Shown here: positions 31,884 to 37,858 of the stretch, piece by piece
Position numbering within the stretch: position 1 is the first letter of the stretch
Layout of the letters: every line of letters begins with the position of its first letter
NCBI GenBank assembly: GCA_964360785.1
Contig: CAYHXX010000001.1
Span: 204,549 to 258,186 of the forward strand
From: an uncultured Gammaproteobacteria bacterium
GTDB taxonomy: Bacteria > Patescibacteriota > Microgenomatia > Woykebacterales > RBG-16-39-9b
DNA: 53,638 bases
Direction: 5' to 3'
Program-made: the position numbers and the translations under genes
Notes under the pieces: generated by a model
Told to the model about the DNA's origin: nothing
Database searches by the model: none
Seen by the model: the letters and a program-made list of their open reading frames with translations, nothing else

Positions 31884-33113
31884 TTAGTTAGAAAACTGCC
31901 CCATCAGGAGAAGTACCCAACCGTTCAAATCATCTAGGTTTGGAAGTTGTGGAAGGTTAAGACCGTCCATGTCTCCCAAGACATTGGAGTTAGCTTCGGT
32001 GCTCGAGTCAACTGAAGCGTCAGCGTCACCAGTTGTTACTGATGGGTCGCCACCGTCTTTAGAAGTGTTATCGTTAGCATCATTGTTTCCAGTGTCTACC
32101 TCAACGTCAACACCATCGCACTTACCATCGTTGAAGTTGTTGTTTTGTTCTGCCCCGAGTTCAGATGCAAGTTTGACCTTAACATCGTTGTCAGAATCAG
32201 AACCATTACCAGCAACTTTGATGTCTGCACCAAGTTCGCAGCACTCATCAAGGTTTACGCCGTTGAAATTGGCTTTGTTGTCAATTCCAACTTCGACGTC
32301 AGCATCACCTGTGTCGATAGAAACATCGCCACCGGTGTTGTCATTGGCTTCGTTGTCGCCAGTTTCAGCATCAACGTCAACATCATTGCTGATATTGGCA
32401 TTGTTGTTCTGAAGTACGCCAACTCCGCTGAGAAGTTCGACATCAACGTCATTGTCGCTGTCAGATCCGTTGCCGGAAATTTCAACATTCAACTCGCCAC
32501 CATCACCATTACCTCCGACGGAAGCAACGTTTTGGTTGACCATGTTGGCAATGTCAACTGTGACATCAGCGTCACCAGTTTCGATTTCTACATCGCCACC
32601 AGTGTTGTCTTCTGCTTCGTTATCGCCGGTCTTGGCGTCAACGTCAACGTTGTTGTTTACGTTTGCATTGTTGTTCTGTTCAATTCCAGTTTCGTTCAAA
32701 ACTTTTACGTTTGCATCGTTGTCAGAATCAGATCCGTTGCCGGAAATTTTGACAGAGGTGTCACCAGGACATCCTCCACAAGCGACGTTAGCAACGTTGG
32801 AGTTAGCACTGTTGGACACAGAGCTACTCACGTTAGCATCTCCAGTGTCGATGGATACATCACCACCGGTATTGTCGTTTGCGTCGTTATCACCAGTATT
32901 AGCGTCAATATTGACGTTATTCTGGATGTTAGCGTTATTGTTCTGGACGATTGAATTGCTAGTGCTTACAGTTACGTTAGCGGTATTGTCAGAGTCGGAC
33001 CCATTACCAGAGATGGTAACAGTAGTAGTTCCGAATGCAACAGATGCTACGCTCCCTGTTAGCAAGGCTGCTGTAGAAACAGCAGTTGTCAATTTGTAGA
33101 CAAATTTATTCAT
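31884..33113 (-). CDS. Secreted acidic Asn/Asp-rich repeat protein (4 x ~89 aa), no anchor; putative major fibre subunit
   Basis: Signal peptide ending VAFG; 4x GNGSDSDN...QNNN...TG.N.A.DNT...TGDA; DNA repeat period 267 bp (32461/32728); strong RBS GGGGGTG. Confidence 0.9.
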   Translation of the reverse strand: MNKFVYKLTTAVSTAALLTGSVASVAFGTTTVTISGNGSDSDNTANVTVSTSNSIVQNNNANIQNNVNIDANTGDNDANDNTGGDVSIDTGDANVSSSVSNSANSNVANVACGGCPGDTSVKISGNGSDSDNDANVKVLNETGIEQNNNANVNNNVDVDAKTGDNEAEDNTGGDVEIETGDADVTVDIANMVNQNVASVGGNGDGGELNVEISGNGSDSDNDVDVELLSGVGVLQNNNANISNDVDVDAETGDNEANDNTGGDVSIDTGDADVEVGIDNKANFNGVNLDECCELGADIKVAGNGSDSDNDVKVKLASELGAEQNNNFNDGKCDGVDVEVDTGNNDANDNTSKDGGDPSVTTGDADASVDSSTEANSNVLGDMDGLNLPQLPNLDDLNGWVLLLMGQFSN

Positions 33114-33215
33114 GTATGTATTCACCCCCTTTCATAGTAATTTTGATTGTATTATCGAGTTTGATATAGGTTTTGTTTTCTTTAACAGACTTTGTCATAT
33201 AGTAATCTCTTTACT

Positions 33216-33719: not shown

Positions 33720-34340
33720 TTACTTAAGTGTAAACTCAAGAATAGTTCTCTCACCATTTAGTTCGCCAACTTCAACTTTAAACTTCGTTGAACCAACTGG
33801 CACTACAAAACCTACGTTTGAAGTTTTGGTGGATTGCGGACGCACCTCAACATTACCCTGGTGAGCCGTTGGTGCAAATTTCTTTCCGTCAACATCGATC
33901 AGGCGAAAACTATCAACTGGGTAAGTATAGAGCGGGACATTGTAATTATTGGAAATTTCCATATTTAGTACTAAGAATTCTTTATTGTTCCGAGCTGCCA
34001 CTCTTTGACCCTGTACCAGGACTGATTCTGCTTTTTGAACGCTGGTAACTTCGACTGGGAATTTCCCATTTGTATTCTTACCATCTTTGGTCTTTGGAAC
34101 AACCTCGAAGTTGTGTGACAAAGGCAAAACGACTGTATTGGAATTGCTGCGGTTTGCGAAGAAAATAAAATAGAGACCGGTCAAGACAACCACTGCGGTT
34201 AGGATGAAAAAGATTCTTTTGGGTTTGCTCACAAATCTTTTGACCGAAGCGAACATACCAGAGAAATTGATGCTGAGTCGTCGACGTGTAGTAGTGGTTG
34301 TGTCAGTGGTAGCTATGGGACTAAATGTAGTAACGGACAT
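33720..34340 (-). CDS. Membrane-anchored DUF4352-like Ig-fold protein
   Basis: One TM; KEFLVLNMEISN, FRLIDVDGKKF, GFVVP; AAGGAG RBS. Confidence 0.75.
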   Translation of the reverse strand: MSVTTFSPIATTDTTTTTRRRLSINFSGMFASVKRFVSKPKRIFFILTAVVVLTGLYFIFFANRSNSNTVVLPLSHNFEVVPKTKDGKNTNGKFPVEVTSVQKAESVLVQGQRVAARNNKEFLVLNMEISNNYNVPLYTYPVDSFRLIDVDGKKFAPTAHQGNVEVRPQSTKTSNVGFVVPVGSTKFKVEVGELNGERTILEFTLK

Positions 34341-34766: not shown

Positions 34767-35111
34767 CTAGTTGTTGACATCATTGTTGATGTTGATTTCC
34801 ACACTGTTGTTGCCGGTATCGATCGAAACACTGCCACCAGTGTTCCCATTGGCAGTGTTACCACCAGTGTTCTGACGAACCCTGACCTTGTTTCTTACAG
34901 TTGCATTGTTTACAGCGGCACTACCCGTAGAAACACACTTATTTGGTCGGCAGCTTCTACCCCCACTGACTCGGACTGTACAGGAGTTACTTGAACCAGA
35001 ACCATTTCCCGAAATTGTACAAGTTGCATCTGCCAAAGCAACCGGTGCTAGTAGTGCACCCGTGGTCAGTAGTCCTGCAGTAGCTAGACCAATTCTTTTT
35101 GCTATATTCAT
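34767..35111 (-). CDS. Small secreted single-repeat paralogue of the Asn/Gly-rich repeat family
   Basis: Signal peptide ending ALA; ISGNGSGSSN...NTGGNTANGNTGGSVSIDTG; 4 Cys; GGAGGTG RBS. Confidence 0.85.
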   Translation of the reverse strand: MNIAKRIGLATAGLLTTGALLAPVALADATCTISGNGSGSSNSCTVRVSGGRSCRPNKCVSTGSAAVNNATVRNKVRVRQNTGGNTANGNTGGSVSIDTGNNSVEININNDVNN

Positions 35112-35129
35112 TATGAGTTTCACCTCCCT

Positions 35130-36176
35130 TCAGGATAGTTCACAAGTTTTCTTTACCAAAGCATTGATACAAGTATCGATTCCGCTTTCGCCTTTGATCT
35201 TGTTGTTACCTAAACCGCCATTGAGATTGTCATCACCACTACCTCCACTAATTTCATCATCGCCCGCTCCAGCATCAACCAGATCATTACCACTCCCAGC
35301 TTTAATTTCGTCATTGTTAGCTCCACCAAAGATATCGTCATTTCCGGAACCTCCATCAATTTCGTCGTTCCCGTCATTTCCAAATATTTGGTCCCTTTCA
35401 CTACCACCATCTAAATCATCATCACCCGTACCACCAAATAAAACATCCTTACCACTGCCACCCTTTATCCGATCAACACCTTCATTTCCGATCAAACAAT
35501 CGTCTCCTCCGCCACCATTGATACGATCATTTCCTTCAAATCCAATTATTAGATCGTTTTTCGAACCACCGTTGAGATTGTTATTCCCGGAAGTTCCAAA
35601 TATAGTCTGTCCGTTGAAATCGATACTTTGACATTCCTCTGGTATCTCAATGCTTATCCCGATTTGCAAATCAAAAATTACGGTTTTGTTTTGAAAACTA
35701 TTTCCACTACCCTGGCCAAAAGTTGCCTTAAATTTGTAACTGGCAACCTCTGTCGGGTTTTGGTTACCAAGAAAGATTCCGTTTATCGAGGTACTATCTG
35801 TGAAAAACTGTTGTAAGGTTCTCGCTCCTGTATAACTCGTTCCTCCGTAGACTTCGACCAAGTTCTTGGAGATCACAATGTTTAGCCCGGAAGCAAGTGC
35901 CCCTGTCTCACTGGTTTTGATACCTTTTACTCCAACTGGTCGAATGACGGCTGCATTATTGGTCACAGTTACGTTTCTCTCTTCACTTTGTCCGGGAGCT
36001 AGATTGCTGACCACAAAGATTGGGTTTCCCGAGGGCACTCCCCAATCAACTGACAAATCTCCAACTGCATAAGCAGTTTTATTTAAATTAAAACGTAGGC
36101 CATCATTAGCAAACACTGCTGCAACGACTGCTACTATTAATAATGTTATTCTCAGATAGCGAAATTTATTTTTCAT
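35130..36176 (-). CDS. Secreted protein with TasA-like N-terminal domain and RTX/hemolysin-type Ca2+-binding repeats
   Basis: NLAPGQ...FQNKTVIFDL resembles the TasA fold; about 13 GGxGxD-type nonapeptides. Confidence 0.85.
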   Translation of the reverse strand: MKNKFRYLRITLLIVAVVAAVFANDGLRFNLNKTAYAVGDLSVDWGVPSGNPIFVVSNLAPGQSEERNVTVTNNAAVIRPVGVKGIKTSETGALASGLNIVISKNLVEVYGGTSYTGARTLQQFFTDSTSINGIFLGNQNPTEVASYKFKATFGQGSGNSFQNKTVIFDLQIGISIEIPEECQSIDFNGQTIFGTSGNNNLNGGSKNDLIIGFEGNDRINGGGGDDCLIGNEGVDRIKGGSGKDVLFGGTGDDDLDGGSERDQIFGNDGNDEIDGGSGNDDIFGGANNDEIKAGSGNDLVDAGAGDDEISGGSGDDNLNGGLGNNKIKGESGIDTCINALVKKTCELS

Positions 36177-37213
36177 TAACAACTCCCATTGTTACTTGTT
36201 CCCTTTGTTGCTGTTGCACAAGTCTGAAAACTCCCAGTTCCGTTTGTCGATCTTCCGATCGAAATTCCAGCTGAGGAGGAACCATACGTATGTGTATCTT
36301 CAATAGTTAAACTCGGATCAATCAGGTCAATAGTGTCCCCTGCGTTGTTAAGAATTGTTTCGGTTGGTCCATAATTAAAAACTACAAATGCTCCAGGAGC
36401 AATTGTCCCTAAACTTGTTAAGCTTTTTGGCGGGTTGCCGGGGTCATCCAAAGTCCAACCAGTCAAGTTGACACTTGTTGTGCCCGAATTATAAATCTCC
36501 ACCCACTCGTTAGTAAAAGCAGTTCCGGGATTTGCAACGAATTCATTTATCTTCAAATTAGAAAAATCACTAGCTGCTACAAAAGTATTGTTCGAACTGA
36601 CTGCTACATCTGAAAAGTATGAAAAAGAACTGCCAATGAAAATCAAGCAAAGAACTGTCAGAGTGATTGGTTTATAAATATTGAGCCGCGCATCTCGCTT
36701 CTTTGGCCGCTTTTTTACTTCCTCGACTATTACCATTAGTTCAGAAATTATGAAAAACATTGTCGGAACTGTGATCAATAAGATAAATCCAAGCGGTTGC
36801 TTCACATAACTCACGAATTTCCCTACAAAAGGAGCCGCAAACACTATTCTCCCGACCACGTGCTTGTCTGGAACAAGTTCGGGGTCTTTTTCTTGGTTGG
36901 CATCTCCTTTTGTCTGGAAAAACTTTTCCCCGTTTTCCCGTACAACGTTGACTACCCGATGACTGACTAACTCTTTTCCCTTTTGGAAAGTGATGACATC
37001 GTTTTCGACATAGTTGACCCCAGCACCATCAGTACCTTTTTTCGCCACTACCACTAGCGATCCAGCCGGAATTGACGGAGCCATACTTCCCGTCTGCACA
37101 ATCAGTGGTTTTGTTGGGACAGGCAAATCAAGATAGGCTGCTACAGTGACAGCACCAATTGCGACAAATATCGCCAGTACAGAATATTTGAGTATTCCAA
37201 AAAATATTTTCAT
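36176..37213 (-). CDS. sipW: SipW-type signal peptidase I fused to a SipW-cognate signal peptide and lamin-tail domain
   Basis: TGSMAPSI (Ser), SHRV (His), TKGDAN; then IGSSFSYFSD..SSNNTF; then INEF..NP..EWVEIYN..VNLTGWTL LTD. Confidence 0.88.
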   Translation of the reverse strand: MKIFFGILKYSVLAIFVAIGAVTVAAYLDLPVPTKPLIVQTGSMAPSIPAGSLVVVAKKGTDGAGVNYVENDVITFQKGKELVSHRVVNVVRENGEKFFQTKGDANQEKDPELVPDKHVVGRIVFAAPFVGKFVSYVKQPLGFILLITVPTMFFIISELMVIVEEVKKRPKKRDARLNIYKPITLTVLCLIFIGSSFSYFSDVAVSSNNTFVAASDFSNLKINEFVANPGTAFTNEWVEIYNSGTTSVNLTGWTLDDPGNPPKSLTSLGTIAPGAFVVFNYGPTETILNNAGDTIDLIDPSLTIEDTHTYGSSSAGISIGRSTNGTGSFQTCATATKGTSNNGSC

Positions 37214-37227
37214 CTTTTACTCTCCGA

Positions 37228-37279
37228 GTCCGAGGCCCCAAGGCCATACCCTGGGGCCTACGAGTTAAAACCTCGGACT
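37228..37279 (-). other. Intercistronic stem-loop after tasA
   Basis: AGTCCGAGG/CCTCGGACT outer stem and GGCCCCA/TGGGGCC inner stem (partly overlapping). Confidence 0.6.
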
Positions 37280-37858
37280 TTACCAAGTTGCGTTTGTTTG
37301 CTTTGCTTCAGCTTGAAGAGAAGCAGTAAACGTCTGTCCTTGGAAATCGTTACCTGCAGTACTATCCAATTCGACCGTTAGTTGATACTGAGCTCTATCA
37401 CCTGTGTTTAACACGAAAGGAGTACCAGTACTCAAACCATCGTTAGTATCATAGAAGTAGCCAGTTATACCACTAGGAACGTTCAAAATGGAAACGAACG
37501 AAGTTCCATTCCAACGTGCAACATCAGTAACTTTAACCTTGTTTTGAGGGTCTAGTGAACCAAGACTCCAAGCACCCGTCGCAAAACCTCGGATATTAAT
37601 CGGTAGTGTTCCTGTGTTCTTCACATCAAAATTCACTAACTTTGATTCGCCCGGCTGCCAATTAGAACCCAAAGCCTCAGACTCAAAATCAGTATCAGCG
37701 TTCTGGTCAGTGATACTTAAATTCAATGTTCCAGTTGTAATTGTGTTGTTTGTTGAGGTATCAGTTGCTGAGAAGAACGCGAAAGTTGCGCCGACTAAAA
37801 GTGCACCTGCTGTCCCTATACTTAGAACCGAAGTTACTATTTTTCTATTGATTGACAT
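37280..37858 (-). CDS. tasA: TasA/CalY (camelysin) family fibre protein
   Basis: SipW-class signal GATFAFFS..TSTNNTITTGTLNL; QPGES; AGNDFQGQTF...AKQ. Confidence 0.88.
   Translation of the reverse strand: MSINRKIVTSVLSIGTAGALLVGATFAFFSATDTSTNNTITTGTLNLSITDQNADTDFESEALGSNWQPGESKLVNFDVKNTGTLPINIRGFATGAWSLGSLDPQNKVKVTDVARWNGTSFVSILNVPSGITGYFYDTNDGLSTGTPFVLNTGDRAQYQLTVELDSTAGNDFQGQTFTASLQAEAKQTNATW

Follow-up and report, generated by a model that had tools for sequence, protein, structure and literature searches.

In Bacillus subtilis, the gene cluster tapA-sipW-tasA encodes a dedicated signal peptidase of the endoplasmic reticulum (ER) type, SipW, together with the fibre subunit (PMC10151520, PMC9674648, PMC9245690). 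According to the account in PMC9674648, the first eleven residues of mature TasA (residues 28–38) form a donor strand, while the N-terminus of TapA resembles this strand and complements TasA; PMC10151520 describes TapA as having, besides its signal, an N-terminal strand like that of TasA and a complete immunoglobulin-like (Ig-like) fold, acting as an initiator only, and further reports that it is as scarce as SipW, that it co-localises with the membrane, and that its gene overlaps sipW stop to start. Homologues of TasA have also been noted in Patescibacteria (PMC9245690), and it is from an ultra-small groundwater bacterium of this group that the locus described here comes. In a stretch of 53,638 nucleotides (“the window”, by which we mean the whole of the DNA analysed), one open reading frame (ORF) encodes a SipW-like peptidase and, joined to its C-terminus, what appears to be a second SipW-type substrate, here called the cargo, made up of an internal signal-like segment, a stretch resembling the TasA donor strand, and a lamin-tail domain (LTD). 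The genome to which the window belongs comprises 928,687 bases in 8 contigs and is 100% complete; the stretch is contained in 12 sequencing runs of 4 studies, whose run labels give a groundwater metagenome as the source.

Several features are shared with the Bacillus system as described in the sources just cited: in both cases a dedicated ER-type signal peptidase is encoded with a TasA-family subunit, a second substrate (TapA, the scarce one, in Bacillus) starts, once mature, with a mimic of the donor strand and continues with a complete Ig-like fold, and peptidase and accessory protein are closely linked at the level of the genes. Unlike the situation in Bacillus, however, the accessory substrate is here part of the same polypeptide as the peptidase, so that its signal is internal, the Ig-like domain is a lamin-tail domain, and the gene order (on the minus strand) is tasA-like gene, sipW::cargo fusion, TasA-like-RTX gene. 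The interpretation we favour, with a confidence only a little above even, is that the peptidase cuts after Ser198 and thereby releases a fibre initiator or end subunit resembling TapA.

A joined frame of this kind might in principle be an artefact of assembly or sequencing, or else a decaying gene created by loss of a stop codon, particularly as the two genes in the split forms described below overlap by 4 nucleotides, so that a one-base error could join them. This explanation is so improbable that we reject it, on the grounds of indel-free contigs and many tailed relatives. A reading of the stretch made earlier from its sequence alone (the sequence-only reading) had named an uninterrupted frame and the recurrence of the fusion in relatives as points to check, and on both points the fusion holds up. 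Contigs from three studies other than the possible source (X3, X5 and X7; these are assembled contigs, not raw reads), as well as X1, show no substitution, indel or joint on positions 36100–37300, and hence neither a stop nor a frameshift between the domains; record 8 of X5 spans 36100–37143 and record 10 of X7 spans 36503–36759, and both cover the junction at 36566–36706. A search of 5.8 billion proteins found 113 relatives with lengths of 189–604 residues. When these were combined with the peptidase ORFs of 29 loci (see below) and with the window protein itself, 121 rows had a near-complete peptidase domain, and among them 72 carry a tail of at least 90 residues, 39 end within 45 residues and 10 lie in between, although it should be noted that the length range of the search favours fused forms. 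The 72 tailed relatives are only 27–59% identical, the domain junction is conserved, and the catalytic Ser/His/Asp/Asp pattern is kept in 70 of them (the exceptions being one N-terminally truncated sequence and one with Asp replaced by Glu), as it is in all 39 stand-alone and all 10 unclassed relatives. A separate search for fusions longer than 604 residues returned just one protein, of 617 residues, which is weak evidence. Source names of the relatives include Levybacteria and Curtissbacteria. Finally, an unbiased count was obtained by scanning 151 phylum genomes of at least 90% completeness with TIGR02228 (the model for archaeal-type signal peptidase I), which gave 36 matches in 32 genomes, 9 of the 36 lying in open frames of at least 300 residues; three of these nine frames were inspected (L015, L019 and L034), and each has an internal signal and the motif.

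The peptidase half itself, of the S26B (SEC11/SipW) type, matches TIGR02228 over residues 10–159 with 79 bits against a cut-off of 51.85 (82.4 bits in a six-frame search of the genome). With the equivalog model for Bacillus SipW, NF046067, it scores 92.5 bits, which is below the cut-off of 190, the alignment reaching residue 170 of the fusion and position 173 of the model's 189; judged by these scores, the peptidase is SipW-like in type and context and is not an equivalog of the Bacillus protein. The predicted catalytic residues Ser43, His85, Asp104 and Asp110 stand in SGSMEP, HR and GDxN..D motifs, and in a set of 28 fusions used for most of the comparisons that follow the last three are invariant while the serine is at least 90% conserved. 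When a profile of these 28 fusions was compared with chains of the Protein Data Bank (PDB), SEC11C and SEC11A (7p2q, 7p2p) were matched with E values of 6e-17 and 5e-16, and the motifs bearing Ser, His and Asp fell into register; the deposited SEC11A chain 9rjb has Ala at the catalytic Ser position in this alignment. An AlphaFold2 (AF2) model of the fusion, made from the 28 sequences, has a mean predicted local distance difference test score (pLDDT) of 81.8 and a predicted template-modelling score (pTM) of 0.44, and consists of a helix (residues 2–27), a beta domain (34–127), a second helix (140–168), a loop (169–179), a short helix (180–194), a disordered stretch (194–216, with pLDDT below 50) and a confident beta-sandwich (220–332). 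Foldseek matched this model to 7p2p with an E value of 1.5e-5, and its matches also include the C-domains of LexA and lambda repressor. Since no other archaeal-type peptidase in the genome exceeds the TIGR02228 cut-off, the TasA-like protein, if it is a SipW substrate, must be processed in trans by the fusion as well. The genome also has a signal peptidase of LepB type, at C1:259761-260258; a second LepB-type frame, at C2:153925-154230, is interrupted by one TGA, which could mean a frameshift, a broken copy or a frame in two pieces.

Beyond the second membrane helix of the peptidase come the basic segment, the hydrophobic stretch and the motif to which the sequence-only reading had drawn attention. 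The strings that it quoted are present where it placed them, KKRPKKR at residues 167–173 and SSFS/YFSD/VAVSSNNTFVAA at residues 195–214 of the fusion, and ATFA/FFSA/TDTSTNNTITTG at residues 24–43 of the TasA-like protein encoded upstream. Scored against TIGR04088, the model for SipW-cognate signals, the internal segment passes, with 22.2 bits on residues 185–214 for a cut-off of 19. In a six-frame search of the whole genome this model gave just two matches among 10 scored candidates, namely the N-terminus of the TasA-like protein at 30.6 bits (26.9 bits in the protein scan) and the internal fusion segment at 26.9 bits. Conversely, a hidden Markov model (HMM) built from the internal segments of the 28 fusions and run against all ORFs of at least 40 residues in the genome found, besides the fusion, only that same TasA-like N-terminus (29.3 bits, E 1.6e-7), the next match having an E value of 9.8. 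In the fusion the TIGR04088 segment is internal, starting at residues 176–185 after two membrane helices, whereas in the split homologues L033, L028 and P0276 it is N-terminal.

In several respects this segment resembles a signal peptide, albeit one lying in mid-chain. The loop between the second helix and the hydrophobic region (h-region) has eight Lys or Arg residues against three Asp or Glu (net charge +5), and in all 28 fusions its net charge is at least +1 (median +4); by the positive-inside rule the loop would be cytoplasmic, in which case the next hydrophobic segment would, like a signal peptide, cross outward. The h- and c-regions together, counted from the last charged residue to position −1, comprise 17 residues, and the corresponding AF2 helix, of 15 residues, is shorter than the other two helices and thus signal-like. 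The segment ends in S196-F197-S198, giving a predicted cleavage between S198 and Y199 (window positions 36620|36619). Across the 28 fusions, which are 32–56% identical to the window protein, position −3 is Thr in 15 and Ser in 13, position −1 is Ser in 14 and Ala in 14, and position −5 is Gly, Ser or Thr in 24, a regularity that points to a cleavage site. The C-terminal half is accordingly a complete preprotein module of the SipW type, running from the basic n-region through the h- and c-regions to a TasA-like first strand. Separate translation of the cargo from an internal start was also considered, and rejected: there is no in-frame ATG, GTG or TTG between the second helix and the hydrophobic core (a single TTG falls inside the core), so that the cargo would be made only as part of the fusion.

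It might nevertheless be supposed that the third segment is not cut at all and serves as a permanent anchor, leaving the strand and the LTD on the peptidase as a membrane-bound nucleator or anchor, or as part of a surface-binding enzyme. A tethered initiator is plausible given the membrane co-localisation reported for TapA in Bacillus (PMC10151520), and a preprint describes signal peptidases fused to accessory modules that are not substrates, in DUF5305 and ten-transmembrane forms (10.64898/2026.01.04.697558). We regard this as unlikely all the same: the small residues at −3 and −1 in every fusion (with the preference at −5 in most), the shortness of the h-region, and the presence in the same membrane of a peptidase of the cognate class that is predicted to be active all speak against it, as does the fact that the split homologues carry the same segment at a true N-terminus, as an ordinary signal peptide. 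We know of no reason why a plain membrane anchor should need small residues at −3 and −1.

These split homologues deserve closer description. Among 29 loci from the phylum scan, 10 have a fused gene and 19 a stand-alone peptidase, and at 11 of the 29 loci the next ORF after a stand-alone SipW bears an LTD. For L012, L024, L028 and L033 the HMM of internal signals recognises an N-terminal signal on this ORF, and for L023, L026, L027, L031 and L037 the signal can be seen by eye, with the motif; the signal of L030 is weak, and the LTD ORF of L020 has a different N-terminus. In L033 the TGA of a 186-residue peptidase overlaps the ATG of a 185-residue ORF (ATGA, with AAGGAG upstream), and in this ORF a basic start leads into a hydrophobic core, TGA|YFSDSVAVSGNTF and finally an LTD. 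A search of 1.84 billion representatives with residues 176–345 of the fusion found a free-standing protein, P0276 (176 residues, 45% identity, E 7e-48), that is collinear with those residues from its own Met to its C-terminal Cys, and P0044 is a second such protein. The module that is internal here thus occurs in other genomes as a gene of its own, its signal at the N-terminus, located after a stand-alone SipW in L033 and free-standing in P0276. The split forms (L033, L028, L031, P0276, P0044) share with the fusion the peptidase family, the signal, the YFSD...N.F motif and the LTD (and, in P0276 and P0044, a cysteine-bearing tail); they differ in consisting of two genes with an ordinary N-terminal signal peptide, where the window has a single frame without an internal start. 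In 19 of 20 locus rows the stand-alone enzymes have only 0–17 residues after the domain (L016 has 39), and since they end after their second transmembrane helix, the third hydrophobic segment is to be assigned to the cargo rather than the enzyme. In 16 of the 29 loci there is a TasA-like gene upstream.

The same observations bear on the suggestion that the LTD half serves the peptidase as an accessory subunit or binds its substrates, much as non-catalytic subunits do in the eukaryotic complex, its likeness to a signal-bearing preprotein being incidental. The catalytic domain is after all SEC11-like, and SEC11 works within a multi-subunit complex; the AbpX preprint, moreover, reports a signal peptidase I fused to an accessory module (10.64898/2026.01.04.697558). 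However, P0276 and L033 have the same module as a secreted protein in its own right, relatives exchange the cargo domain freely while signal and motif stay constant, and about three quarters of the SipW-type frames in the phylum sample (27 of 36) have no such tail, so that we consider this explanation very improbable.

How often fusion or fission has occurred can be estimated from trees of the peptidase domain, albeit with some latitude. For the 31 loci with verified stops, the fused and stand-alone states require 5 changes (bootstrap 5–95% range 4–6), and no bootstrap tree has only one change, although the starred branches taken alone force only one. A larger tree of 111 rows requires 19 changes, of which starred branches force 7, and a quick tree agrees, with 18; the figure of 19 is an upper estimate, as some of the database rows scored as stand-alone may be fragments at contig ends. 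In the fusions of L015 and L019 the internal signal still starts with Met residues (..VMMKTLLL.. and ..KKVKMALLF.. respectively), which look like traces of a start codon from a time when the cargo had its own gene.

Turning to the cargo, the lamin-tail domain named by the sequence-only reading is recognised by PF00932 at residues 215–311 with 63.1 bits (cut-off 34.3). In the AF2 model the strands of its beta-sandwich span residues 220–332, with a pLDDT of about 90 in most 10-residue blocks, and Foldseek matches the model to the Ig fold of lamin A/C (3gef, E 6e-4). Other fusions carry other domains: CBM96, a weak match to Big_13, several cargos without a Pfam match, and multi-domain tails are found as well as LTDs. 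The LTD of the window fusion ends in a tail with two cysteines, a form seen in 28 of the 113 relatives and in only 1 of 146 general LTD representatives, that one being the stand-alone cargo P0276; by sequence, therefore, this subtype is specific to SipW-linked cargo. In the SipW-linked cargos (that of the window fusion, P0276 and P0044) the tail follows the pattern C...TKG.SNNGSC, and at a guess the two cysteines might close a loop through a disulfide. None of the other LTD-bearing ORFs of the window genome has the Cys tail. One of them, C1:346863-348107, which lies outside the window, encodes a second LTD protein of 414 residues with its LTD at residues 190–307 and a C-terminal membrane anchor; it has neither the Cys tail nor a motif of the SipW type.

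In the stretch between the predicted cut and the LTD, the parallel that the sequence-only reading drew between the cargo and the TasA-like protein holds as a shared column pattern. Counting from the predicted cut in 28 cargos and 40 TasA-like proteins, Phe or Tyr occupies +1 in 24 of 28 cargos and 40 of 40 TasA-like proteins, Phe occupies +2 in 22 and 40, Ser +8 in 26 and 37, and Asn +11 in 28 and 40, while +13 is hydrophobic in every sequence of both sets. The first 13 residues of the mature cargo thus follow the TasA-like donor-strand pattern; in the window pair, 6 of 16 positions are identical between the cargo and its TasA-like neighbour. Few parts of the fusion are as well conserved as the segment +1 to +16 (0.59, with the peptidase core at 0.54), and in the monomer model this segment is disordered, ahead of a confident and complete LTD. 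As the N-terminus copies the TasA-like donor strand and the fold of the cargo itself needs no strand, the released protein would most likely act in the manner of TapA, and it is on this precedent that a role as tip or minor subunit, which the sequence-only reading had proposed, may be suggested.

One might argue instead that the protein is indeed cleaved but that the LTD product is a secreted or surface adhesin with no part in the fibre, the motif on the mature side being an element by which peptidases of the SipW type recognise their substrates. Such a view has something to commend it, in that the same motif precedes many different cargos in relatives, that LTDs are common surface modules in the phylum (12,376 representatives at E values of 1e-3 or below, mostly giant multi-LTD proteins), and that co-variation of the strands within loci is weak (see below). 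Signal peptidase I, however, recognises its substrates by the h-region and by positions −3 and −1, and a function of the mature protein better accounts for sixteen conserved residues beyond the cut. The near-confinement of the Cys-tail subtype to SipW-linked cargo, and the position of the gene, which overlaps or closely adjoins a TasA-like gene on either side, also argue for a connection with the fibre. In Bacillus the equivalent residues of TasA (28–38) and of TapA are reported to form the donor strand (PMC9674648, PMC10151520). On balance an adhesin pure and simple seems to us a minority possibility, though one to be kept in mind.

The mechanism we favour, then, would make of the fusion a single membrane polyprotein whose parts have opposite fates. 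The chain would insert with three spans. Residues 1–168 would form an active SipW-like signal peptidase I of the ER or archaeal type with the usual two membrane helices; the basic loop would bring the chain back to the cytoplasm, and residues 182–198 would re-insert as a signal peptide, taking the lamin-tail cargo outside. The peptidase of the same or a neighbouring molecule would then cut after Ser198, the signal remaining tethered to the enzyme as a third helix, and the released mature protein, of about 147 residues and starting YFSDVAVSSNNTF, would bear a complete Ig-like domain. By giving its first strand to a TasA-like subunit, the cargo could start or end a fibre, and it would be made where the subunit-maturing enzyme is located and in a 1:1 ratio to it.

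It must be said that a number of points weigh against this mechanism. At +16 the TasA-like proteins have Gly in 40 of 40 cases, while the cargos have Ala in 20 of 28 and not Gly. Cargo and TasA-like strands from the same locus are only weakly more similar than shuffled pairs (0.489 against 0.444), with 818 of 20,000 shuffles giving a value as high, and the 11 loci compared are related and not independent. TIGR04088 matches with an E value of 0.01 or below in only 6 of the 28 fused relatives, and in the hmmscan search the window protein lies just 3 bits above the cut-off. The monomer model is uninformative as to docking of the site into the active site, given the pLDDT below 50 in residues 194–216 and the pTM of 0.44. 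By the fusion profile the cargo is not a homologue of TapA, no TapA chain being among the 9 PDB matches (E ≤0.1), a comparison in which the cargo itself was not set directly against TapA. The cutting could instead be done by the housekeeping LepB-type peptidase, and to our knowledge a signal peptide that stays tethered to its own enzyme has no studied precedent.

Some related arrangements are known from other systems. In viral polyproteins the host ER signal peptidase (the SEC11 complex) cuts after an internal hydrophobic segment behind an earlier membrane span, thus separating two proteins; there the enzyme is a separate host complex, whereas here it is the first part of the polyprotein. LexA, UmuD and lambda repressor (family S24, with an S26-like fold) cleave themselves in cis or in trans, being soluble regulators with a Ser-Lys dyad; these proteins cut a linker, whereas the predicted site in the window protein belongs to a signal peptide. 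The signal peptidases I of AbpX loci (with DUF5305, or with ten transmembrane helices), as far as the preprint describes them, are likewise dedicated, fibre-associated enzymes with extra fused domains, but there the added part is an accessory subunit or a set of membrane helices, unlike the substrate with its own cleavage signal found here (10.64898/2026.01.04.697558). The Pam pili of bacteria of the candidate phyla radiation (PMC13278184) were also considered and set aside as a different system; the words peptidase, SipW and TasA are absent from that paper. A literature search whose scope excluded subscription journals and supplements found no published fusion of a signal peptidase with its substrate.

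A bolder version of the proposal is that the fused peptidase acts as a platform for fibre assembly, making a single-turnover cut in cis, keeping the spent signal as a third helix, and using the exposed strand, positioned next to the active site, to capture each newly matured subunit. We put this forward as no better than a tentative idea, on the doubtful side of the scale. If true, processing, nucleation and anchoring would all be performed by one polypeptide, with neither chaperone nor usher, in wall-poor bacteria with tiny genomes, and the repeated fusion and fission together with the swappable cargos (LTD, CBM96, Ig-like domains and giant adhesins) would amount to a general strategy of Patescibacteria for fitting different adhesive heads to one type of fibre. 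The fusion is of interest quite apart from this, as a natural single-chain system for studying site choice and cis action by ER-type signal peptidases, and as a link between the donor-strand fibres of TasA type known from Bacillus and archaea and the surface biology of ultra-small episymbiotic bacteria, including their attachment to hosts. With fused and split forms side by side, and 4–6 changes of state among 31 verified loci, it also offers a clean natural experiment on gene fusion. There is a practical consequence for annotation, too: where a source names fusion-type relatives at all it calls them only “signal peptidase I”, a label under which a secreted surface protein would go unnoticed in about one in four SipW-type genes of the phylum sample (9 of 36 frames). 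Table 1 collects the features of the locus.

Table 1 Features of the peptidase–cargo fusion and its immediate neighbours, in window coordinates.
Feature	Position	Strand	Basis
TasA/camelysin-like major fibre subunit, 192 residues	37280..37858	-	PF12389, TIGR04088, fold
Spacer between tasA-like gene and fusion, with strong RNA hairpin	37214..37279	-	Folding compared with shuffled sequences
Peptidase–substrate fusion ORF, 345 residues, ATG start	36176..37213	-	Open frame, translation
N-terminal membrane helix (residues 2–27) and predicted extracytoplasmic peptidase domain (residues 34–139)	36797..37213	-	TIGR02228, SEC11 alignment, AF2
Second membrane helix of peptidase (residues 140–168)	36710..36796	-	AF2, NF046067 alignment
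Basic loop (residues 169–181), predicted cytoplasmic, n-region of internal signal	36671..36709	-	Charge count
Internal signal, h- and c-region (residues 182–198)	36620..36670	-	TIGR04088, −3/−1 residues
Donor-strand-like N-terminus of predicted mature cargo (residues 199–214, YFSDVAVSSNNTFVAA)	36572..36619	-	Column pattern
Lamin-tail domain (residues 215–332), complete Ig-like beta-sandwich	36218..36571	-	PF00932, AF2, Foldseek
Conserved two-cysteine C-terminal tail (C330 ... KGTSNNGSC345) and stop codon	36176..36217	-	Comparison with relatives
Downstream TasA-like and RTX gene	35130..36176	-	HemolysinCabind, hhalign

The upstream neighbour is TasA-like, as had been claimed for it: PF12389 (Peptidase_M73/camelysin) matches with 42.9 bits against a cut-off of 22.5. 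The protein has a SipW-type signal (residues 1–27, with a predicted cut after Ala27), a donor-strand-like segment (residues 28–43) and a beta-sandwich (residues 47–187); among 40 relatives, F29, N38 and G43 never vary, while T25 and A27 show a conservation of at least 90%. The AF2 model gives residues 1–40 a pLDDT below 50 and the sandwich one above 90, and the top PDB match found for it by Foldseek is the TasA fibre (8aur_A, E 1.2e-6, template-modelling score 0.51), followed by an archaeal bundling pilus (7ueg_A). At the level of sequence a phmmer search of the PDB with the protein gave no match, and a profile of its family gave a weak match to TasA chains (E 0.011–0.014). The profile alignment reaches TasA residues 33–81, and if it is extrapolated without gaps the mature N-terminus of TasA, which is residue 28 (PMC10151520), falls within one residue of the predicted cut in the TasA-like protein.

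The 66-nucleotide spacer between this gene and the fusion folds into a hairpin with a minimum free energy of −33.3 kcal/mol (z −3.75 against 200 shuffles). Seven relatives were folded likewise: hairpins of unrelated sequence occur in the same spacer in L032, L014, L020 and L033 (z −4.2 to −6.7), the spacer of L009 reaches −34.1 kcal/mol with a z of only −1.6, and L025 and L037 have no hairpin. The element may be an attenuator or may stabilise the transcript, and could possibly set a high ratio of subunit to peptidase and cargo expression. A scan for terminators found one site, a weak one, near the tasA-like stop codon, the stronger hairpin having come from RNA folding, and a scan for promoters found no more promoter-like sites than in shuffled sequence.

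On the other side of the fusion, the ATG of the downstream gene overlaps the fusion's TAA by one base (TAATG). The protein it encodes has an N-terminal anchor or signal, a TasA-like domain (residues 57–174; hhalign against the TasA-like family gives a probability of 90% and an E value of 1.5e-6) and RTX calcium-binding repeats (HemolysinCabind, 105.9 bits), and is probably a further component of the fibre. TIGR04088 gave no match in this gene in either the protein scan or the genome search. L020 has a relative of this gene whose product carries an LTD behind the same N-terminal domain.

Just downstream of the fibre genes lie those of two paralogous secreted repeat proteins, also on the minus strand, one of 413 residues with four repeats (31884–33125) and one of 118 residues with a single repeat (34767–35123). 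They match each other with a BLASTP E value of 5e-12, had no match in Pfam, NCBIfam or the PDB sequences, and share a repeat unit of about 75 residues (ISGNGS..N ... NTGG.V.I.TG). On the same strand, and again downstream of the cluster, the frame at 33720–34340 encodes a protein that matches DUF4352 (30.3 bits) and has a membrane anchor at its N-terminus.

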